DNA from: Escherichia coli
Lineage (GTDB): Bacteria; Pseudomonadota; Gammaproteobacteria; Enterobacterales; Enterobacteriaceae
Strand: one strand, 5' to 3'
NCBI RefSeq assembly: GCF_013122565.1
Contig: NZ_CP053258.1
Length of the DNA: 64,000 nt
The first letter of the stretch is position 1, and each line of letters begins with the position of its first letter. Below, one piece after another: positions 3,001 to 12,000 of this stretch. Made by a program: the position numbers.

Positions 3001-6000
3001 CCGAGGGAATACTGCTGCAATGCCAGCGTGATGACAAAACCCTTAGCACTAATCCGCTGGTCTGGCGGCGCGTAAAGCCATAAATGCCTCTAATAGTGGA
3101 ATGTCAGCAGGGGCCAGCGGATATTGCAGCGCCTCTTCAGGTGAGCACCAGACCAGCGCCTGATGTTCATGTGCCTGTAACGTCCCGTGGAAGTCGGGTA
3201 CGTGCCAGGCATGAAGATGGATAATCCGCCCCGAAACTTCTCGCTGATGGCTGGCAACATACTCACCCACAGTTGCTTCGATGCCCAGTTCTTCGTTTAA
3301 CTCACGCACCAGCGCCTGCTGCTGGCTTTCATCCAGCTCGACTTTACCACCGGCAAACTCCCATAATCCCGCCTGATCGCTCTGGGCGGATCGTTGCGCG
3401 AGTAAAATTTTGCCATCACGTTCAATGATGGCGGCAACAACTTCAATCATTTTCATAAATTACACACGGGCAGATAAGCGAAAAATGCCATAATATCCGC
3501 ACTGTTGCTCAATCAGAAAGGCTTTATATTTAAGGAGTGCCTGTGCTAGACCGCCATCTTCATCCCCGGATTAAACCGTTGTTGCATCAGTGCGTGCGGG
3601 TTCTTGATAAACCGGGCATTACGCCAGATGGTTTAACATTAGTGGGATTTGCCATCGGCGTGCTGGCTCTGCCGTTTCTGGCTCTGGGCTGGTATCTGGC
3701 GGCGCTAGTCGTCATTTTGTTGAATCGTCTGCTTGATGGTCTGGATGGCGCACTGGCGCGGCGCAGAGGGCTTACCGACGCGGGCGGCTTTCTCGATATT
3801 TCTCTCGATTTTCTCTTTTACGCGCTGGTGCCGTTTGGTTTTATTCTTGCTGCACCGGAGCAAAATGCGCTGGCAGGCGGCTGGCTGCTGTTTGCGTTTA
3901 TCGGCACGGGCAGCAGTTTTCTCGCTTTTGCTGCGCTGGCGGCGAAACATCAGATTGATAATCCCGGTTATGCGCATAAATCGTTTTATTATCTGGGCGG
4001 GTTAACCGAAGGCAGCGAGACGATTTTGCTATTTGTTCTGAGTTGCCTCTTTCCGACGTGTTTTCCGTGGTTTGCATGGGTATTTGGTGCGTTGTGCTGG
4101 ATGACGACCTTTACGCGGGTGTGGAGTGGGTATCTGACGCTGAAGTCGCTCCAGCGTCAGTAATTGCAATGTTATTTGCTGCTGTCCGGGCCGCGTTCAC
4201 CGGTTGCAACCGGATTTTTTGGATCGCTGCTCCATTCGTACCAGCCGCCGTCGTAAACGGAGACGTTATTCCAGCCCATTGCTCGTGCGTACATAAAGGT
4301 TTCGGACGCGCGCCAGCCGGTGCCGCAGTAGAATGAAACTTGCTGATCTGGTTTGATATTCCATGCTTTCCACATAGCCGTAATATCATCGGCGCTGCGC
4401 ATGGTGCCATCCGGGTTATGGAAATCTTCCATATGCGTCGAGTCGCTACCAGCGTGTCCCCAACGTGCTCCGGCTATTTCACCTTTTGGTTTAATATAGC
4501 TGTAACCGCTGGTCGTACCGATAAATTCTGGCCACGAACGAATGCTCACCAGCGATGAATCCTGGCGATGCAGCAGTCCACGCGCCTGTTCCATATCAAG
4601 CATCAGTTGCGGTTGTGCCGGGATCTTCACGCCGAAATCCGGTTCCGCTTTCACTTTCGGTGGCGTTCCTCGCTCAACAGGCAGTCCCGCGTCGGACCAG
4701 GTTTGCCAGCCGCCATCCAGCAGGCGCACATCTTTCACGCCGGCATAAAGCATAATCTGCGCCACACGCGCTGCAGCGTATACGTCACGCCCATACAGAA
4801 TGACCGTGGTGTCATGGCGAATGCCGTGTTTTGCCAGCATCGCTTTTAGTTGTGCATCAGAAACTTTGTTCCACAGCGGTTCGCTTTCCACTTCGTTGGT
4901 ATCGATGTAGTCAGCACCGGGAATATGGCTGATAAGGTAAAGCTTAGGAGCGCCCCAGGCCGCTTCAATGACTTTCCAGTCACCGGCAGGTTTCGCCGTA
5001 ACCTCTTTACCTTGTTGCAGGTCGTGCAGCCATTGCGGATAAACCAGCTGCTCAAAGTGCGGCAGTTTTTGTAGACGGGAAGGTTCGCTTAGCGCGTCAC
5101 TCAGAATGGAGATATGCGTAAAACCTGCTTTTTGCAGTCGCGTTTTGACGGCGTCGACATCTTTGTCATTACCGTACAGCGCCACCGGGGCATCGGCTTT
5201 CAGGTTATGTTGCTTGATCCACGCGTTGAGCTGTTCGGTGCTCATTTTGTCAAGCCAGCTAGCAGAGAGGTTTAAGGCGGCAGGTTCATGACCAGAAGGG
5301 CCATTTAAGGTTTGTGGCCAGCCGTTATAAAACGCGCTGGGGCGAGTATCTATCGCTTTGCCATTTTGTTGTTGAAGCTGGTCAAGTGTAAGAGGCTTCG
5401 CCAGTTCAGCGGCCCACGAAGAAGCGCAAGCCAGCCCTAAAGCCATTGCCAGCGCGGTCATTTGAGAAACACGTTTCATCGAAAATCCCGACATTGTAGT
5501 TTTGAGTGCGCCATTCTGAACTGACGCATTGAGAAAAACTTTGCGTTATCGCAGTTTGTTGTAATTTTCTGACCACTGCGCCATATCCAGAACAGAACTA
5601 TCAGCAGGAACATCCTGGAGATCGTGCGTTACCTGAACGACGGGGATCGCCAGGGCGCGAACTTCGCTGAACACCCACTGGCGAAAATTATCGCGCAGAG
5701 CCACATCAAGACGGCTGAATGGCTCATCCAGGAGTAACGCTTTTGGCTGGGCGAGAAGGGCGCGTAGTAGAGCAACGCGCGCTCGCTGACCGCCAGACAA
5801 AGTGGCAGGATCCTGATGGAAAGCTCCGTCAAGGCCTGAACGCTCAAGTGCATCATTCACGGCATTACGTCGGGCATTCCCTTTAAGTGTCGCCGGTAGC
5901 GCCAGCAGTAAATTTTGCCCGACGCTGAACTGGTCAAATAACAGTGCATCCTGGAAAAGAATGCCAATCTGACGCTGTGCGGTGGGTAGCATGTCAATCC

Positions 6001-9000: not shown

Positions 9001-12000
9001 GCGTCAAAATGCGCAGCCAGTCGGGTGCGCAGGGCATCATCGACCGTAGGCGGTGTGACGCTTGCGGCTTCGGCGTACTCCAGCGCCAGCCGTTCTTCAT
9101 CGCTGAAGAGCGGGCTTTGCCGCCAGTCAGCCACTGCCAGCAGTTTATCGCTGCTGCCGGTGCGCTCGGCGACTTTCATACTGGTGATATCCACACAAAA
9201 CTCACACAGGCACATTTGCGCAATGCGCGCGCTGACAAGCGATCGTACTACCGGATCGAGCGGTGAGCGTTTGCGCTCCAGCCAGCCAACAAACATCGAC
9301 ACCAGATAAAAGATAAACGGGATCCGCCCCCACCAGCGAATGGGGCTTAGCACCTCGCCGTAATGGCGACGATGCAGCCACGCCTGCGGACGTAAAATGA
9401 AAGGAATTTTGCTAAGCGGCGGTAAACCCATCAGGCATTCCTCTTCTGGCGCTCAAGCCATATTTTCTTCGCCATAAAAATCACCACGGTCAGGGCAAAC
9501 AGAATAAACAGTCCGGTGACAAACCAGAAGGTACCGCCTGTTAACATGCTGCCCGCCCAGGAATAAACAATAGTCGCCGGTAACTGACCAAGCCCGGTGG
9601 CGATAAAAAACGAGCGAAAACGGATTGAAGTCAGACCGGCAGCATAGCTGATTGGATCGAAAGGGACAAAAGGCAATAACCGACAGACCAGGATGGTGTG
9701 TTTGCCGTAGCGAGTGAAAAAGCCGTCCATACTGTCAAGTACTGTTTTGCCGGTTAATTTTTCCACCACTTCGCGGCCCATCACTCTGGCGATAAAAAAG
9801 CACAGTGCCGCGCCGGCCATCGAACTGGTCCACGACAGCAAGCCGCCCCAGAACGCGCCAAATAGCGACGCATTGGCAAAGGTGATCAAAAACGCAGGTA
9901 GCGGTGCAGCAATGGCCTGTAAAATCATCAACAAGAACGAGACAACTGCCGCCAGTGCGCCGTAAGACTGAATAAAGCGTTCTATACCCTGTTGGTCCAC
10001 GGCGGCAAACGCCGCAACGCTGCGATTGATAAACTCATGGACGCCGGGAAGCAGCGCCCATGCCAGCAGCATAGCGAACAACAGGATGATGAGGGTTATA
10101 CGGTAGTACCAGATTTTACGCGATTGCATATTCATCATCCTTTATCCTGGCTTTATTCGGTGATTTTAAAGGTAACCGTTGCCAGCGTGTTATCCGCCGG
10201 GAGAACCGAGGCATTGCCTTTGAATTTAACTTCACCTCGTTTTTCAACTGCACCATAAGTGTATGTTGCATTGCTGACGATGCCGACCGGGCAGCTATCC
10301 AGACACACCAGGCAGCCCGTTTTCTTCTCTTCTGCTGCCGTTAAATTACCGCCAAAGCGCATGTCCAGTTTCTTGCCATTACTGTCAACAATCACTTCAT
10401 CGAAGGAATACGTTTTTGCCGCCCCTTGCCAGTTGACCGAAATATCCAGTTTGCTGCCTGTGACATGAGTCGTTTCTTTATTATCCATCGTCATGTTTTC
10501 GCCCGGTGTACCACCTGCCTCTTTCAGGGCTTCATAAAATGCTTTCGGGGTCGCATAACCCATAAACAGCGATTTATGTCCGTTGGAGCCATCTTTAAAC
10601 ACAATACCGTGACGAGTGTCGTCGGTGAGGAAACGACCATTAATTTGCACCAGCATGGTTACCGTATGGTTATTGGCATCGACGCGCAGCGGTTGGCTGT
10701 TCGAAAGTCCGTCGTATTCCACTTTTGCCGCCGCATTCTCTTTTTGATCGCAGCCGCTAAGCCCAGCAACAGCCAGTAAGCAGAGTGCAGTCAGTCCTTT
10801 TTTCCATGACACTGAATAATGTTGCAACATCGTTCTATCCTTCATTTTTTGGGTGAGTAAGTGGGTTGCGGCGCGAAGCAGACAGATCCACATGTTTGTG
10901 TCGGGCGTAGAGTTTTGCGAGCTGGACGAGAATAAACAGCGCCAGGCCCGCCAGACAGAGTTGTAAAATAAAGCGCAGCGTAATGCCTTCATTGGCGAGA
11001 TCGCTTGCCATCACGGTATAAATAACAATACCGGGCAGGGTCGTGAGTGCCGAAATAAGGGTATAAGGCCAGAAGGCGATTGTGGTTAATCCGTAAGCGT
11101 AATTTTGAATATTGTAAGGAAACAACGGGATTAAGCGGGTCAGAATAAGAAAATCAATACCGTTACGCGCAATGCCTTTTTCAATGGCCTGGAAGGTATG
11201 GCTATGGCCAACGTATTTCAGCAGTAAATCACGTCCCAGCCAGCGCGCCAGCAGGAATGAGCACGAGGAGGCCAGCGTGGCGGCAATTAATGAGAGTAGT
11301 GTCCCTAAGAGCGGGCCAAAAACTATTCCTCCAGCGATCACCAGTATGCTTCCTGGTAACAGAAAGAGGGTGGCAATGATGAATAACAGAATATAGAGGC
11401 TATAACCGAACAATCCGCTCTGGCGGATGAGTGTCTGTAAGTGGGGTAAATCGGTGAGCAGATCGAATAAACCGAAAGCGTGGATAGCGTAAATGACCAG
11501 CGCAAAAATAAGACAGGCAAAAAGAAATTTACGCTCAGCGTTCATCGTGGAGTTTCCTATATCAAACTTGATAATAGAGAAGTGGTCAGACAACTAAAAA
11601 CGCAGTGACGGTATAACAAAGGACGGCAGGCAACAAATCATTACTGACAGTTTGTTGATTTTTCTCAAGGTTAATTCTCCTGACCCAGTTTGAGCCAGGA
11701 GAGCTGCTAAATTAGCGGCGGAAGGTCGCCCAGACGGGGGCGTGATCGGACGGTTTTTCCATGCTGCGAATTTCATAGTCGATGCCGGTTTCTACGCAAC
11801 ATTCTGCCAGCGGTTGGCTGGCGAGCAGCAGGTCGATGCGCAGACCACGGTTATCGTCAAAACCTTTTGAGCGGTAATCAAACCATGAGAAACGATCTGC
11901 TGTTTGCGGATTCGCATGGCGGAAGGTATCGACCAACCCCCAGCTCATCAGTCTCTCCATCCATTCGCGCTCTTCCGGCAGGAAAGAGCATTTACCGGTA

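Follow-up and report, generated by a model that had tools for sequence, protein, structure and literature searches.

According to reviews from 2022 and 2026 (PMC9312934, PMC13188914), no high-affinity transporter specific for selenium has yet been described in prokaryotes. The "specific" selenite route of Escherichia coli is uncharacterised, and in C. metallidurans the uptake of selenite has been connected with a DedA protein (PMC2744661). Among the closest described systems are gene clusters of the YedE/YedF-SelD type, which combine a candidate selenium transporter with the TusA/DsrE-like protein YedF (Lin et al. 2015, PMC5322559). Here we describe the ydjXYZ-ynjABCD gene cluster and the adjoining genes ynjE and ynjF, found within a 64,000-nucleotide (nt) stretch of an E. 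coli genome (contig NZ_CP053258.1 of assembly GCF_013122565.1; hereafter the window). Gene context suggests, tentatively, that the locus encodes an anaerobic envelope system for the uptake and processing of a thiophilic chalcogen or metalloid, with selenium as the likeliest element.

The arrangement resembles the YedE/YedF-SelD clusters in that a membrane protein and small thiol proteins are encoded next to selD and yedF; YdjY and DedA genes lie directly beside both of these in Desulfobacterota and in Facklamia. However, the membrane part is a pair of DedA/VTT proteins and not YeeE/YedE, and an extracytoplasmic three-cysteine lipoprotein, an ATP-binding cassette (ABC) importer and a CDP-alcohol phosphatidyltransferase are added. 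Among the open reading frames (ORFs) inspected by eye near selD/yedF in three loci of our comparison set (L081, L082 and L052) no YedE-like gene was recognised, a dedicated search not having been made; the flanking ORFs looked like aldehyde:ferredoxin oxidoreductase, acetyl-CoA transferase and GlmM. In E. coli, yedEF are present elsewhere in the genome.

A second likeness is to the "rSAM-selenodomain" genes encoding ArsS, TIGR04282 and TIGR04283 proteins, which stand in the same operons as those for YdjY, the DedA pair, rhodanese and YnjB-type importers in Thermincola, Syntrophorhabdaceae, Campylobacter, Catonella and Facklamia. Unlike these cassettes, the E. coli locus consists of transport, thiol and phosphotransferase parts only, and lacks the radical-SAM protein, the glycosyltransferases and the nucleoside hydrolase. 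The Sao neighbourhood (Haft, 10.1101/2022.07.06.499078) is similar in placing an ABC transporter amid proteins rich in cysteine or selenocysteine in anaerobes, but the match of YnjD to SaoA is weak (104 bits, cutoff 360) and the Sao protein families differ, so this is an analogy only. The Sao preprint makes no mention of YdjY, DedA, YnjB or ArsS, and Lin et al. (PMC5322559) make none of DedA.

The locus comprises seven minus-strand ORFs at 5546-11545, read from the sequence with the same coordinates as in a preliminary description of this DNA, and two genes assigned to the same system by conserved context:

ydjX, 10835-11545, minus strand: DedA/VTT membrane protein of the TMEM41/Tvp38 clade, "X-type", 236 amino acids (aa)
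ydjY, 10153-10830, minus strand: lipoprotein, 225 aa; an accessory gene in this slot
ydjZ, 9431-10138, minus strand: DedA/VTT membrane protein, "Z-type", 235 aa; conserved partner of YdjY
ynjA, 8883-9431, minus strand: carboxymuconolactone decarboxylase (CMD)-family protein, 182 aa, with an N-terminal hydrophobic segment
ynjB, 7707-8873, minus strand: periplasmic substrate-binding protein (SBP) with a Sec signal peptide, 388 aa
ynjC, 6199-7734, minus strand: fused double permease, 511 aa
ynjD, 5546-6199, minus strand: ABC ATPase, 217 aa
ynjE, 4172-5479, minus strand: periplasmic three-domain rhodanese; same system by conserved context
ynjF, 3537-4163 (RefSeq start at about 3543), plus strand: membrane enzyme of the CDP-alcohol phosphatidyltransferase family, convergent with ynjE; same system by conserved context

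The seven ORFs are real annotated genes and not chance ORFs. The 6.4-kb stretch was matched in 5424 of 5426 complete E. coli genomes (coverage of at least 80% in 5383), and RefSeq annotation of the matching genomes gives the same genes under the same names. The junctions measure +4 nt (ydjX/ydjY), +14 (ydjY/ydjZ), -1 (ydjZ/ynjA, an ATGA-type overlap), +9 (ynjA/ynjB; +6 if the ynjB start is taken as the first Met), -28 (ynjB/ynjC) and -1 (ynjC/ynjD), which bears out the earlier claim of gaps of no more than 14 nt and three overlaps. A purine-rich, Shine-Dalgarno-like motif precedes all seven starts. The GC content of ydjX and ydjY is 0.48 (0.50-0.52 at third codon positions), as against 0.56-0.57 for ynjA, ynjB and ynjC. 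The preliminary description had also recognised a DedA pair, cysteine motifs in YdjY and YnjA, and an ABC importer in YnjBCD, with which the motifs and profile matches given below agree; it was right but incomplete. Over window positions 5400-11800 the full-length matches listed from the 5426 genomes are 98.4-98.5% identical, with one record in the band of at least 99%, so the DNA probably comes from a strain or lineage that stands at some distance from the bulk of sequenced E. coli.

The ydjXYZ-ynjABCD genes are already catalogued as an FNR-activated operon: FNR binds at -60.5 and directly activates them as a single operon, and ynjE is activated directly and separately from a site at -41.5 (Myers et al. 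2013, PMC3688515). The evidence for FNR control at the two promoters is theirs, and the single operon proposed earlier agrees with it. Overproduction of BaeR weakly induces ynjA and ynjB (PMC2731931), and given this effect an internal promoter for ynjABCD may exist. In the literature that we searched on all gene names we found regulation data (FNR, BaeR) only, and none of it assigns a function to any of the seven genes. Three transcription signals were located in the window:

11655-11668, minus strand: FNR box TTGAGAAAAATCAA, found by pattern search, with one mismatch to TTGAT-N4-ATCAA, 116 nt upstream of the ydjX start
5493-5541, minus strand: ynjE promoter region with the FNR half-site-like TTGAGAAAAAC, a -35 element TTCAGA, 16-nt spacing and a -10 element TACAAT
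4200-4213, plus strand: terminator-like palindrome CCGGTTGCAACCGG with a T-run after it, immediately past ynjF

The half-site TTGAGAAAAA in the ynjD-ynjE spacer has the same sequence as the left half of the FNR box upstream of ydjX. On the minus strand of the ynjD-ynjE interval no terminator-like hairpin was found. Between positions 4000 and 12700 there are 24 terminator-like patterns, against 10.3 ± 3.2 in shuffled sequences, and most of them lie within coding sequence; of these patterns the palindrome after ynjF alone seems to lie where a terminator could work.

The unit of seven genes put forward in the preliminary description proved too narrow, as ynjE and ynjF accompany the DedA pair and the YnjB-type importer in Enterobacteriaceae and Firmicutes. 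In enterics the slot is bounded by xthA on one side and nudG-gdhA-topB on the other, and the xthA...gdhA-topB synteny is common to E. coli, Citrobacter, Kluyvera and Raoultella. Its content is as follows:

Escherichia: the seven genes plus ynjE and ynjF; ydjY present
Citrobacter and Kluyvera: VTT, VTT, SBP, permease, ATPase and rhodanese, with CMD overlapping CDP-alcohol phosphatidyltransferase on the opposite strand; ydjY absent
Raoultella: E. coli order; ydjY absent

The DedA-X, DedA-Z, YnjB-type importer, rhodanese and CDP-alcohol phosphatidyltransferase genes are found together in all four genera, and the DedA pair, importer, rhodanese and phosphatidyltransferase co-occur again in Clostridia and Bacilli. 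The ynjE gene adjoins in every enteric locus examined, and in Citrobacter and Kluyvera the gene for the YnjA orthologue lies upstream of ynjF, overlaps it and is translationally coupled to it. Identity to the Citrobacter/Kluyvera orthologues is 80% for YnjB, 89% for YnjE, 81-88% for YnjF and 54-57% for YnjA, while ynjA is 85% identical to the Raoultella copy. From this comparison of slots the enteric core consists of eight genes, including ynjE and ynjF, and the functional unit in Escherichia is predicted to comprise nine, the seven together with ynjE and ynjF. By its distribution, ydjY is a gain of the Escherichia lineage (with a few Citrobacter) between the two DedA genes. The locus is thus core in E. 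coli, as had been claimed, but the statement that it is conserved and not an inserted island does not extend to ydjY.

YdjY is a member of the YdjY domain family (NF040466, 146.4 bits, cutoff 50), and all its homologues carry PF27149, a family without assigned function. Its Sec-type signal has the lipobox LSGC and no twin-arginine motif, as read from the sequence. The cysteine is followed by Asp at +2, as in the homologues from Proteobacteria; by the established Lol-avoidance rule this residue is an inner-membrane retention signal. The motif C173-L-V-C176-L-D-S-C180-P is encoded at window positions 10291-10314, and C173, C176, C180 and H74 are invariant among homologues. The AlphaFold2 (AF2) model is confident (pLDDT 90) but has no relative of solved structure, and a Protein Data Bank (PDB) sequence search with YdjY returned nothing significant (E ≥ 0.27). 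The 4Fe-4S ferredoxin label that some sources give to YdjY was rejected, the Fer4 matches having E = 0.09-0.25, with only three cysteines (C-x2-C-x3-C-P) and no twin-arginine translocation signal.

Homologues 50-60% identical to YdjY occur in Escherichia, Firmicutes (Finegoldia, Peptostreptococcus, Gemella, Catonella, Facklamia and Clostridium), Sulfurospirillum, Campylobacter concisus and Desulfobacterota. In 100,044 species genomes, scanned at high stringency, there were at least 95 YdjY loci, and neighbours were counted over 74 non-enteric ones. A DedA gene of the YdjZ type adjoins YdjY in 71 of the 74, a second DedA gene of the YdjX type is frequent, and YdjY with DedA-Z alone, lacking phosphatidyltransferase and ABC importer, is found in Gemella, Finegoldia and Peptostreptococcus. 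When in-frame TGA codons were sought in the YdjY homologues, all 74 were full-length with Cys, which indicates no selenocysteine variant. One Desulfobacterota locus (L052) has two tandem YdjY paralogues.

Both DedA proteins belong to the DedA/VTT family, since their orthologues (71-75% identical) carry PF09335 in precomputed Pfam data. YdjZ is 72-75% identical to its Citrobacter/Kluyvera orthologue and 54-60% identical to the YdjY-adjacent DedA protein of Firmicutes and Campylobacterota. YdjX is 71-72% identical to the product of the first VTT_dom gene of Citrobacter/Kluyvera and 34-39% identical to that of the second DedA gene of Firmicutes YdjY cassettes. In 54 YdjZ-type sequences, conservation reaches 95% or more at 65 residues, with Cys113 present in 100% and Cys152 in 94%.

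Of the 74 non-enteric YdjY loci, 10, from two phyla, have selenium genes (selD, yedF, selA/B) no more than 10 kb away; the chance expectation per single-copy gene is about 0.6%, which is the author's estimate and not a computed value. The neighbours recorded, with the number of loci out of 74, are:

HdrD-like Fer4/CCG proteins: 20
rhodaneses: about 15
APH/choline-kinase-like proteins: 13
ArsS radical-SAM proteins (TIGR04167, above cutoff): 10
TIGR04282 transferases: at least 10, with TIGR04283 transferases in some cassettes too
YnjB-type SBP with split permeases and ATPase: 10
YedF, within 10 kb: 9
nucleoside hydrolase: 7
SelD, within 10 kb: 6
PrdB-like selenoprotein with in-frame TGA: 6
YnjF-like CDP-alcohol phosphatidyltransferase: 5
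MprF-type flippase domain: 5
SelB, within 10 kb: 4
SelA, within 10 kb: 2

In Facklamia an island runs from a kinase/nucleotidyltransferase gene through genes for a family 2 glycosyltransferase (GT2), a PrdB-like selenoprotein, ArsS, DsbD, TlpA, DedA-Z, DedA-X, nucleoside hydrolase, a small membrane protein, YdjY and rhodanese and, after a short gap, continues with SelD (also a selenoprotein), YedF, SelB and SelA. The DsbD- and TlpA-like genes of this cassette are of the reductant-export type, and Facklamia SelD is obtained by reading through a TGA codon (CGG-U-NAKIGPG, where U is selenocysteine). A PrdB/GrdB-like reductase with a conserved in-frame TGA (SPG-U-YICHQS) is encoded in the YdjY cassettes of Facklamia and Bacillus benzoevorans, the genes concerned being located as follows:

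L074, 4879-5600: PrdB/GrdB-like gene with TGA
L078, 3693-4410: PrdB/GrdB-like gene with TGA
L080, 4946-5650: PrdB/GrdB-like gene with TGA
L070, 12995-13700: PrdB/GrdB-like gene with TGA

The (seleno)protein families represented in YdjY cassettes are ArsS, C-GCAxxG-C-C and rhodanese. The HdrD-like proteins have "diclust_near_Sec" as their best NCBIfam match (E = 1e-31 to 1e-37). In Desulfobacterota the HdrD-like Fer4/CCG domain is fused N-terminally to DedA/VTT, directly beside YdjY (L005 11205-12977, L052 7148-9001 and about 10 other Desulfobacterota loci). In E. coli itself selD lies 5.6 kb beyond ynjF, in the selD-topB operon and outside the window (L087 7539-8582, E. coli O157:H7 TR01). A membrane protein of 506 aa with an N-terminal heavy-metal-associated MTCxxC domain is encoded beside ArsS and YdjY in a Bacillota metagenome-assembled genome (L030 5672-7192, minus strand).

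Two themes run robustly through these data. The first is one of thiol and chalcogen-metalloid chemistry, seen in the three-cysteine lipoprotein, the DedA-Z cysteines, the rhodanese, the CxCxxC, C-GCAxxG-C-C and HdrD-like proteins and DsbD/TlpA, as well as in the selD/yedF/selA/B linkage, ArsS and several (seleno)protein families. The second, equally robust, concerns membrane phosphodiesters or lipids and comprises the CDP-alcohol phosphatidyltransferase, the TMEM41-clade DedA pair, the MprF-like flippases and a fusion of phosphatidyltransferase with SBP.

The model that we rank first is one of selenium handling, because of the sel-gene linkage in two phyla, the nearby selD, the lack of a known transporter, the link between DedA and selenite, and FNR control, which matches the anaerobic demand for selenoprotein formate dehydrogenases. 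As part of this model, the seven genes with ynjE and ynjF possibly constitute one FNR-controlled envelope system, switched on without oxygen. Its established ground is the operon architecture, the published FNR control, the export signals of YdjY, YnjB and YnjE, the conserved neighbourhood and the fusion proteins, and the mechanistic steps that follow are inferred from gene context. The element would first be bound in the periplasm by YnjE, a rhodanese, and by YdjY, anchored to the inner membrane, to give a persulfide- or selenotrisulfide-type adduct; the YdjX/YdjZ pair would carry the element, or a carrier-bound form, across the inner membrane. Release would fall to a cytoplasmic or membrane-associated thiol-redox protein, in enterics YnjA (CxCxxC) and elsewhere a C-GCAxxG-C-C protein or the HdrD-like Fe-S disulfide reductase that is DedA-fused in Desulfobacterota. 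What YnjBCD would import is a form or co-substrate that is small, polar and probably phosphorylated or organic, and YnjF would couple this to a phosphodiester or phospholipid carrier. The beneficiaries in E. coli would be SelD and the anaerobic selenoprotein formate dehydrogenases. It is rather doubtful that YdjY and YdjX/YdjZ, with YnjE, YnjA, YnjBCD and YnjF, are the missing dedicated route of selenium acquisition and trafficking in anaerobic bacteria; if they are, the route would in "full" cassettes also supply a radical-SAM pathway to an organo-selenium (or organo-arsenic) sugar-phospholipid.

Several points weigh against selenium. Its functional support is gene context throughout, 64 of the 74 non-enteric YdjY loci have no selenium gene within 10 kb, and the adjacency in Facklamia may reflect the selenoprotein genes inside the cassette. 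The neighbouring ArsS, TIGR04282 and TIGR04283 families are named for arsenosugar synthesis. The need for both a DedA pair and an ABC importer is not cleanly explained, and neither is the product of YnjF; the fold of YnjB points to no ligand, its neighbours being binders of phosphonate, polyamine, Fe3+, sugar phosphate and thiamine. As enterics other than Escherichia do without YdjY, this protein cannot be essential to the enteric system. Finally, in aerobic transposon-directed insertion-site sequencing (TraDIS) selD, selA and selB mutants lost fitness and ydjX and ydjZ mutants did not (PMC8803141), but this is weak evidence, because the operon is probably not expressed aerobically.

The lipid theme admits a different explanation, salvage of a head group into an unusual phospholipid with no role for chalcogens. 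YnjBCD would import a polar alcohol or phospho-alcohol, YnjF would condense it with CDP-diacylglycerol by the logic of phosphatidylcholine and phosphatidylinositol phosphate (PIP) synthases, and YdjX/YdjZ would scramble the lipid to the periplasmic leaflet. YnjF has the signature DGALAR-x7-G-GFL-D-ISL-D and its orthologues carry PF01066, which places it among the CDP-alcohol phosphatidyltransferases; it matches archaetidylinositol-phosphate (AIP) synthase at 62 bits (cutoff 180; 5e-17) and PIP synthase at 43 bits (cutoff 170; 5e-11). YnjF-like genes adjoin YnjB-like genes in five Firmicutes loci, and such genes overlap in Firmicutes. Within the YnjB family (305 clusters at 50% identity, E < 1e-30) there are fusions of YnjB-type proteins to a CDP-alcohol phosphatidyltransferase (P0313, in effect YnjF::YnjB), to a TIGR04283-like GT2 (P0251) and to an ICMT/PEMT-like methyltransferase (P0312). 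Two other representatives of the family, P0248 and P0252, lie on short contigs whose neighbourhood is uninformative. The metagenomic contig of P0313 (L092 3057-6666) encodes VTT, VTT, C_GCAxxG_C_C and the phosphatidyltransferase-SBP fusion in a row and no YdjY; this is the E. coli architecture minus YdjY, with another small cysteine-rich protein replacing YnjA.

Among the relatives of scramblases, YdjX and YdjZ have been placed in the TMEM41/Tvp38 clade (preprint 10.1101/2020.12.18.423352). These two stand nearest to human TMEM41B. They share the VTT/DedA fold family with UptA and TMEM41B/VMP1, and their position beside a phospholipid-synthase-type enzyme parallels the synthesis-then-scrambling logic of the endoplasmic reticulum. 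Unlike UptA and TMEM41B, the present system has two DedA subtypes, a dedicated lipoprotein and, in Desulfobacterota, the Fe-S disulfide reductase fusion. Both proteins match the DedA-type UptA model weakly, and YdjZ also gives a weak match to the NCBIfam DedA model PRK10847; an assignment as undecaprenyl-phosphate (UndP) transporter UptA (NF052604) was rejected at 27.5 bits for YdjX and 36.4 for YdjZ (cutoff 250). When eight E. coli DedA paralogues were tested in B. subtilis, only DedA gave high-level MX2401 resistance and strong UndP transport (preprint 10.1101/2022.02.03.479048). No match to PADLOC anti-phage models was found for YnjF, YdjX or YdjZ.

Head-group salvage would account for these fusions, gene overlaps and clade assignments, and for the MprF-type flippase-domain genes in 5 loci, the kinase-like genes in 13 and the nucleotidyltransferase-like genes in at least 10; the nearest folds to YnjB include binders of sugar phosphates and phosphonates. 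It leaves unexplained the rhodanese, YdjY, the CMD and C-GCAxxG-C-C proteins, the HdrD fusions and the sel-gene linkage, and it does not suit the genera that have YdjY with DedA-Z alone. We know of no unusual phospholipid in E. coli. We hold this explanation to be unlikely, although by no means negligible.

The ArsS-type neighbours raise the prospect of organo-arsenic handling, a reduced arsenosugar or arsenolipid pathway in which an imported arsenosugar-type compound would be joined to lipid and the three-cysteine site of YdjY would bind As(III). ArsS, the TIGR04282 and TIGR04283 "arsenosugar biosynthesis" transferases and nucleoside hydrolase occur in 7-17 YdjY loci, ArsS scoring above its cutoff (TIGR04167, 337 bits, cutoff 300), and P0251 joins a TIGR04283-like GT2 to YnjB. 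Sites with three thiolates are typical ligands of As(III). However, the E. coli locus has neither ArsS nor the transferases, no arsM, arsR, arsB/acr3 or arsC was seen among the family-annotated neighbours (no dedicated search having been made), and FNR control and the selD/yedF linkage suit selenium better. The family name ArsS is of cyanobacterial origin, its role in these anaerobes being putative. We regard organo-arsenic handling as improbable.

Trafficking of sulfane sulfur or thiosulfate for cofactor synthesis, by which the published role of YnjE in molybdopterin sulfuration would be widened to the whole locus, is more improbable still. YnjE is a rhodanese by its active-site loop CGTGWR and its rhodanese model matches, it is annotated as thiosulfate sulfurtransferase or molybdopterin synthase sulfurtransferase, and YnjE-like multi-domain rhodaneses (188-262 bits) occur in the YdjY loci of Catonella, Peptostreptococcaceae and Campylobacter. 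FNR activation would suit the anaerobic demand of molybdoenzymes, and there are weak matches to permease and ATPase models of sulfate/thiosulfate and molybdate importers. These matches (CysT, CysA, ModB/C) are all far below cutoff, however, and for thiosulfate E. coli is already equipped with CysPUWA and TsuA. The crystal structure of YnjE has been solved; the periplasmic enzyme acts poorly on thiosulfate or 3-mercaptopyruvate, and its physiological substrate has been called unclear (PMC10215317).

The importer is of Type I, consisting of the SBP YnjB, two permease domains in YnjC and an ATPase with the expected motifs (YnjD; Walker A GPSGCGKST, LSGGQ and LLLDEP). YnjB matches NF008633 at 560 bits (cutoff 203), and the YnjB-type SBPs of YdjY loci reach 457 bits on the same NCBIfam subfamily. 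The AF2 model of YnjB (pLDDT 94) has a substrate-binding-protein fold, and its nearest Foldseek matches are cluster-D binding proteins, PhnS-like, PotD, FbpA, AfuA and TbpA (TM 0.6-0.68, 12-18% identity). As these neighbours bind phosphonate, polyamines, Fe3+, sugar phosphates, pyridoxal phosphate or thiamine, the ligand cannot be deduced from them; a PDB sequence search with YnjB gave no relative at E < 0.01. YnjC consists of two CysT/ModB-like permease halves, which are split over two genes in the Firmicutes homologue, and YnjD matches many importer-type ATPase models, none above cutoff. The cluster-D fold, the CysT-like permease domains and the importer-type ATPase are shared with ThiBPQ, PotABCD, PhnSTUV and FbpABC, but YnjBCD is below every equivalog cutoff, and YnjB-type proteins are elsewhere fused to membrane lipid or transferase enzymes. 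Assignment to ThiBPQ was rejected: YnjD scores 131.5 bits on ThiQ (cutoff 245), YnjB matches no ThiB/TbpA model, and its likeness to the TbpA structure 2qry is limited to a TM of about 0.6 at 14-15% identity.

YnjA carries the motif C74-L-C76-E-F-C79, encoded at window positions 9195-9212 and retained in the Citrobacter and Kluyvera orthologues. It matches the Pfam CMD domain (E = 5e-8), and its best NCBIfam match, below cutoff, is a YciW-related (seleno)protein family (101 bits). Of the preliminary description of YnjA as an AhpD-like protein of thiol/peroxide chemistry, the CMD domain and the CxCxxC motif stand; the peroxide reading finds no support, the score on the AhpD-type, peroxidase-related CMD model TIGR01926 being 22.7 bits (cutoff 81.8) and the match to AhpD in the PDB weak (E = 7.6e-6).

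That the genes have no common function, one promoter merely serving generic DedA homeostasis, an AhpD-like oxidative-stress protein and an ordinary thiamine or polyamine importer, is likewise very improbable, for although some YnjB homologues bear the JGI label "putative thiamine transport system", YnjD matches ThiQ and PotA models at 128-131 bits and BaeR weakly induces ynjA and ynjB, the gene set recurs in other orders, in other phyla and as fusion proteins, the ThiQ, peroxidase-related and UptA scores (131, 22.7 and 27-36 bits) fall short of their cutoffs (245, 81.8 and 250), and strong UndP transport was confined to DedA among the eight paralogues.

What is new here is the nine-gene unit, an accessory ydjY that is nonetheless tightly paired with the YdjZ-type DedA, and the selenium/organo-metalloid context. 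These data link the orphan genes ynjA, ynjE, ynjF and ydjY into one system. The locus lies in the best genetic model organism and is non-essential and FNR-inducible, so that the selenium model can be tested directly with existing knockouts. If head-group salvage were true, there would be in E. coli an anaerobic phospholipid not seen before. If the selenium reading is true, the locus represents a new transporter architecture, in which a DedA pair is served by an extracytoplasmic three-cysteine lipoprotein and by cytoplasmic reductive release, feeding SelD. The "specific" selenite route of E. coli is still without a gene (PMC2744661), and the locus is a testable candidate for the handling of selenium, or of a related element, at the envelope.

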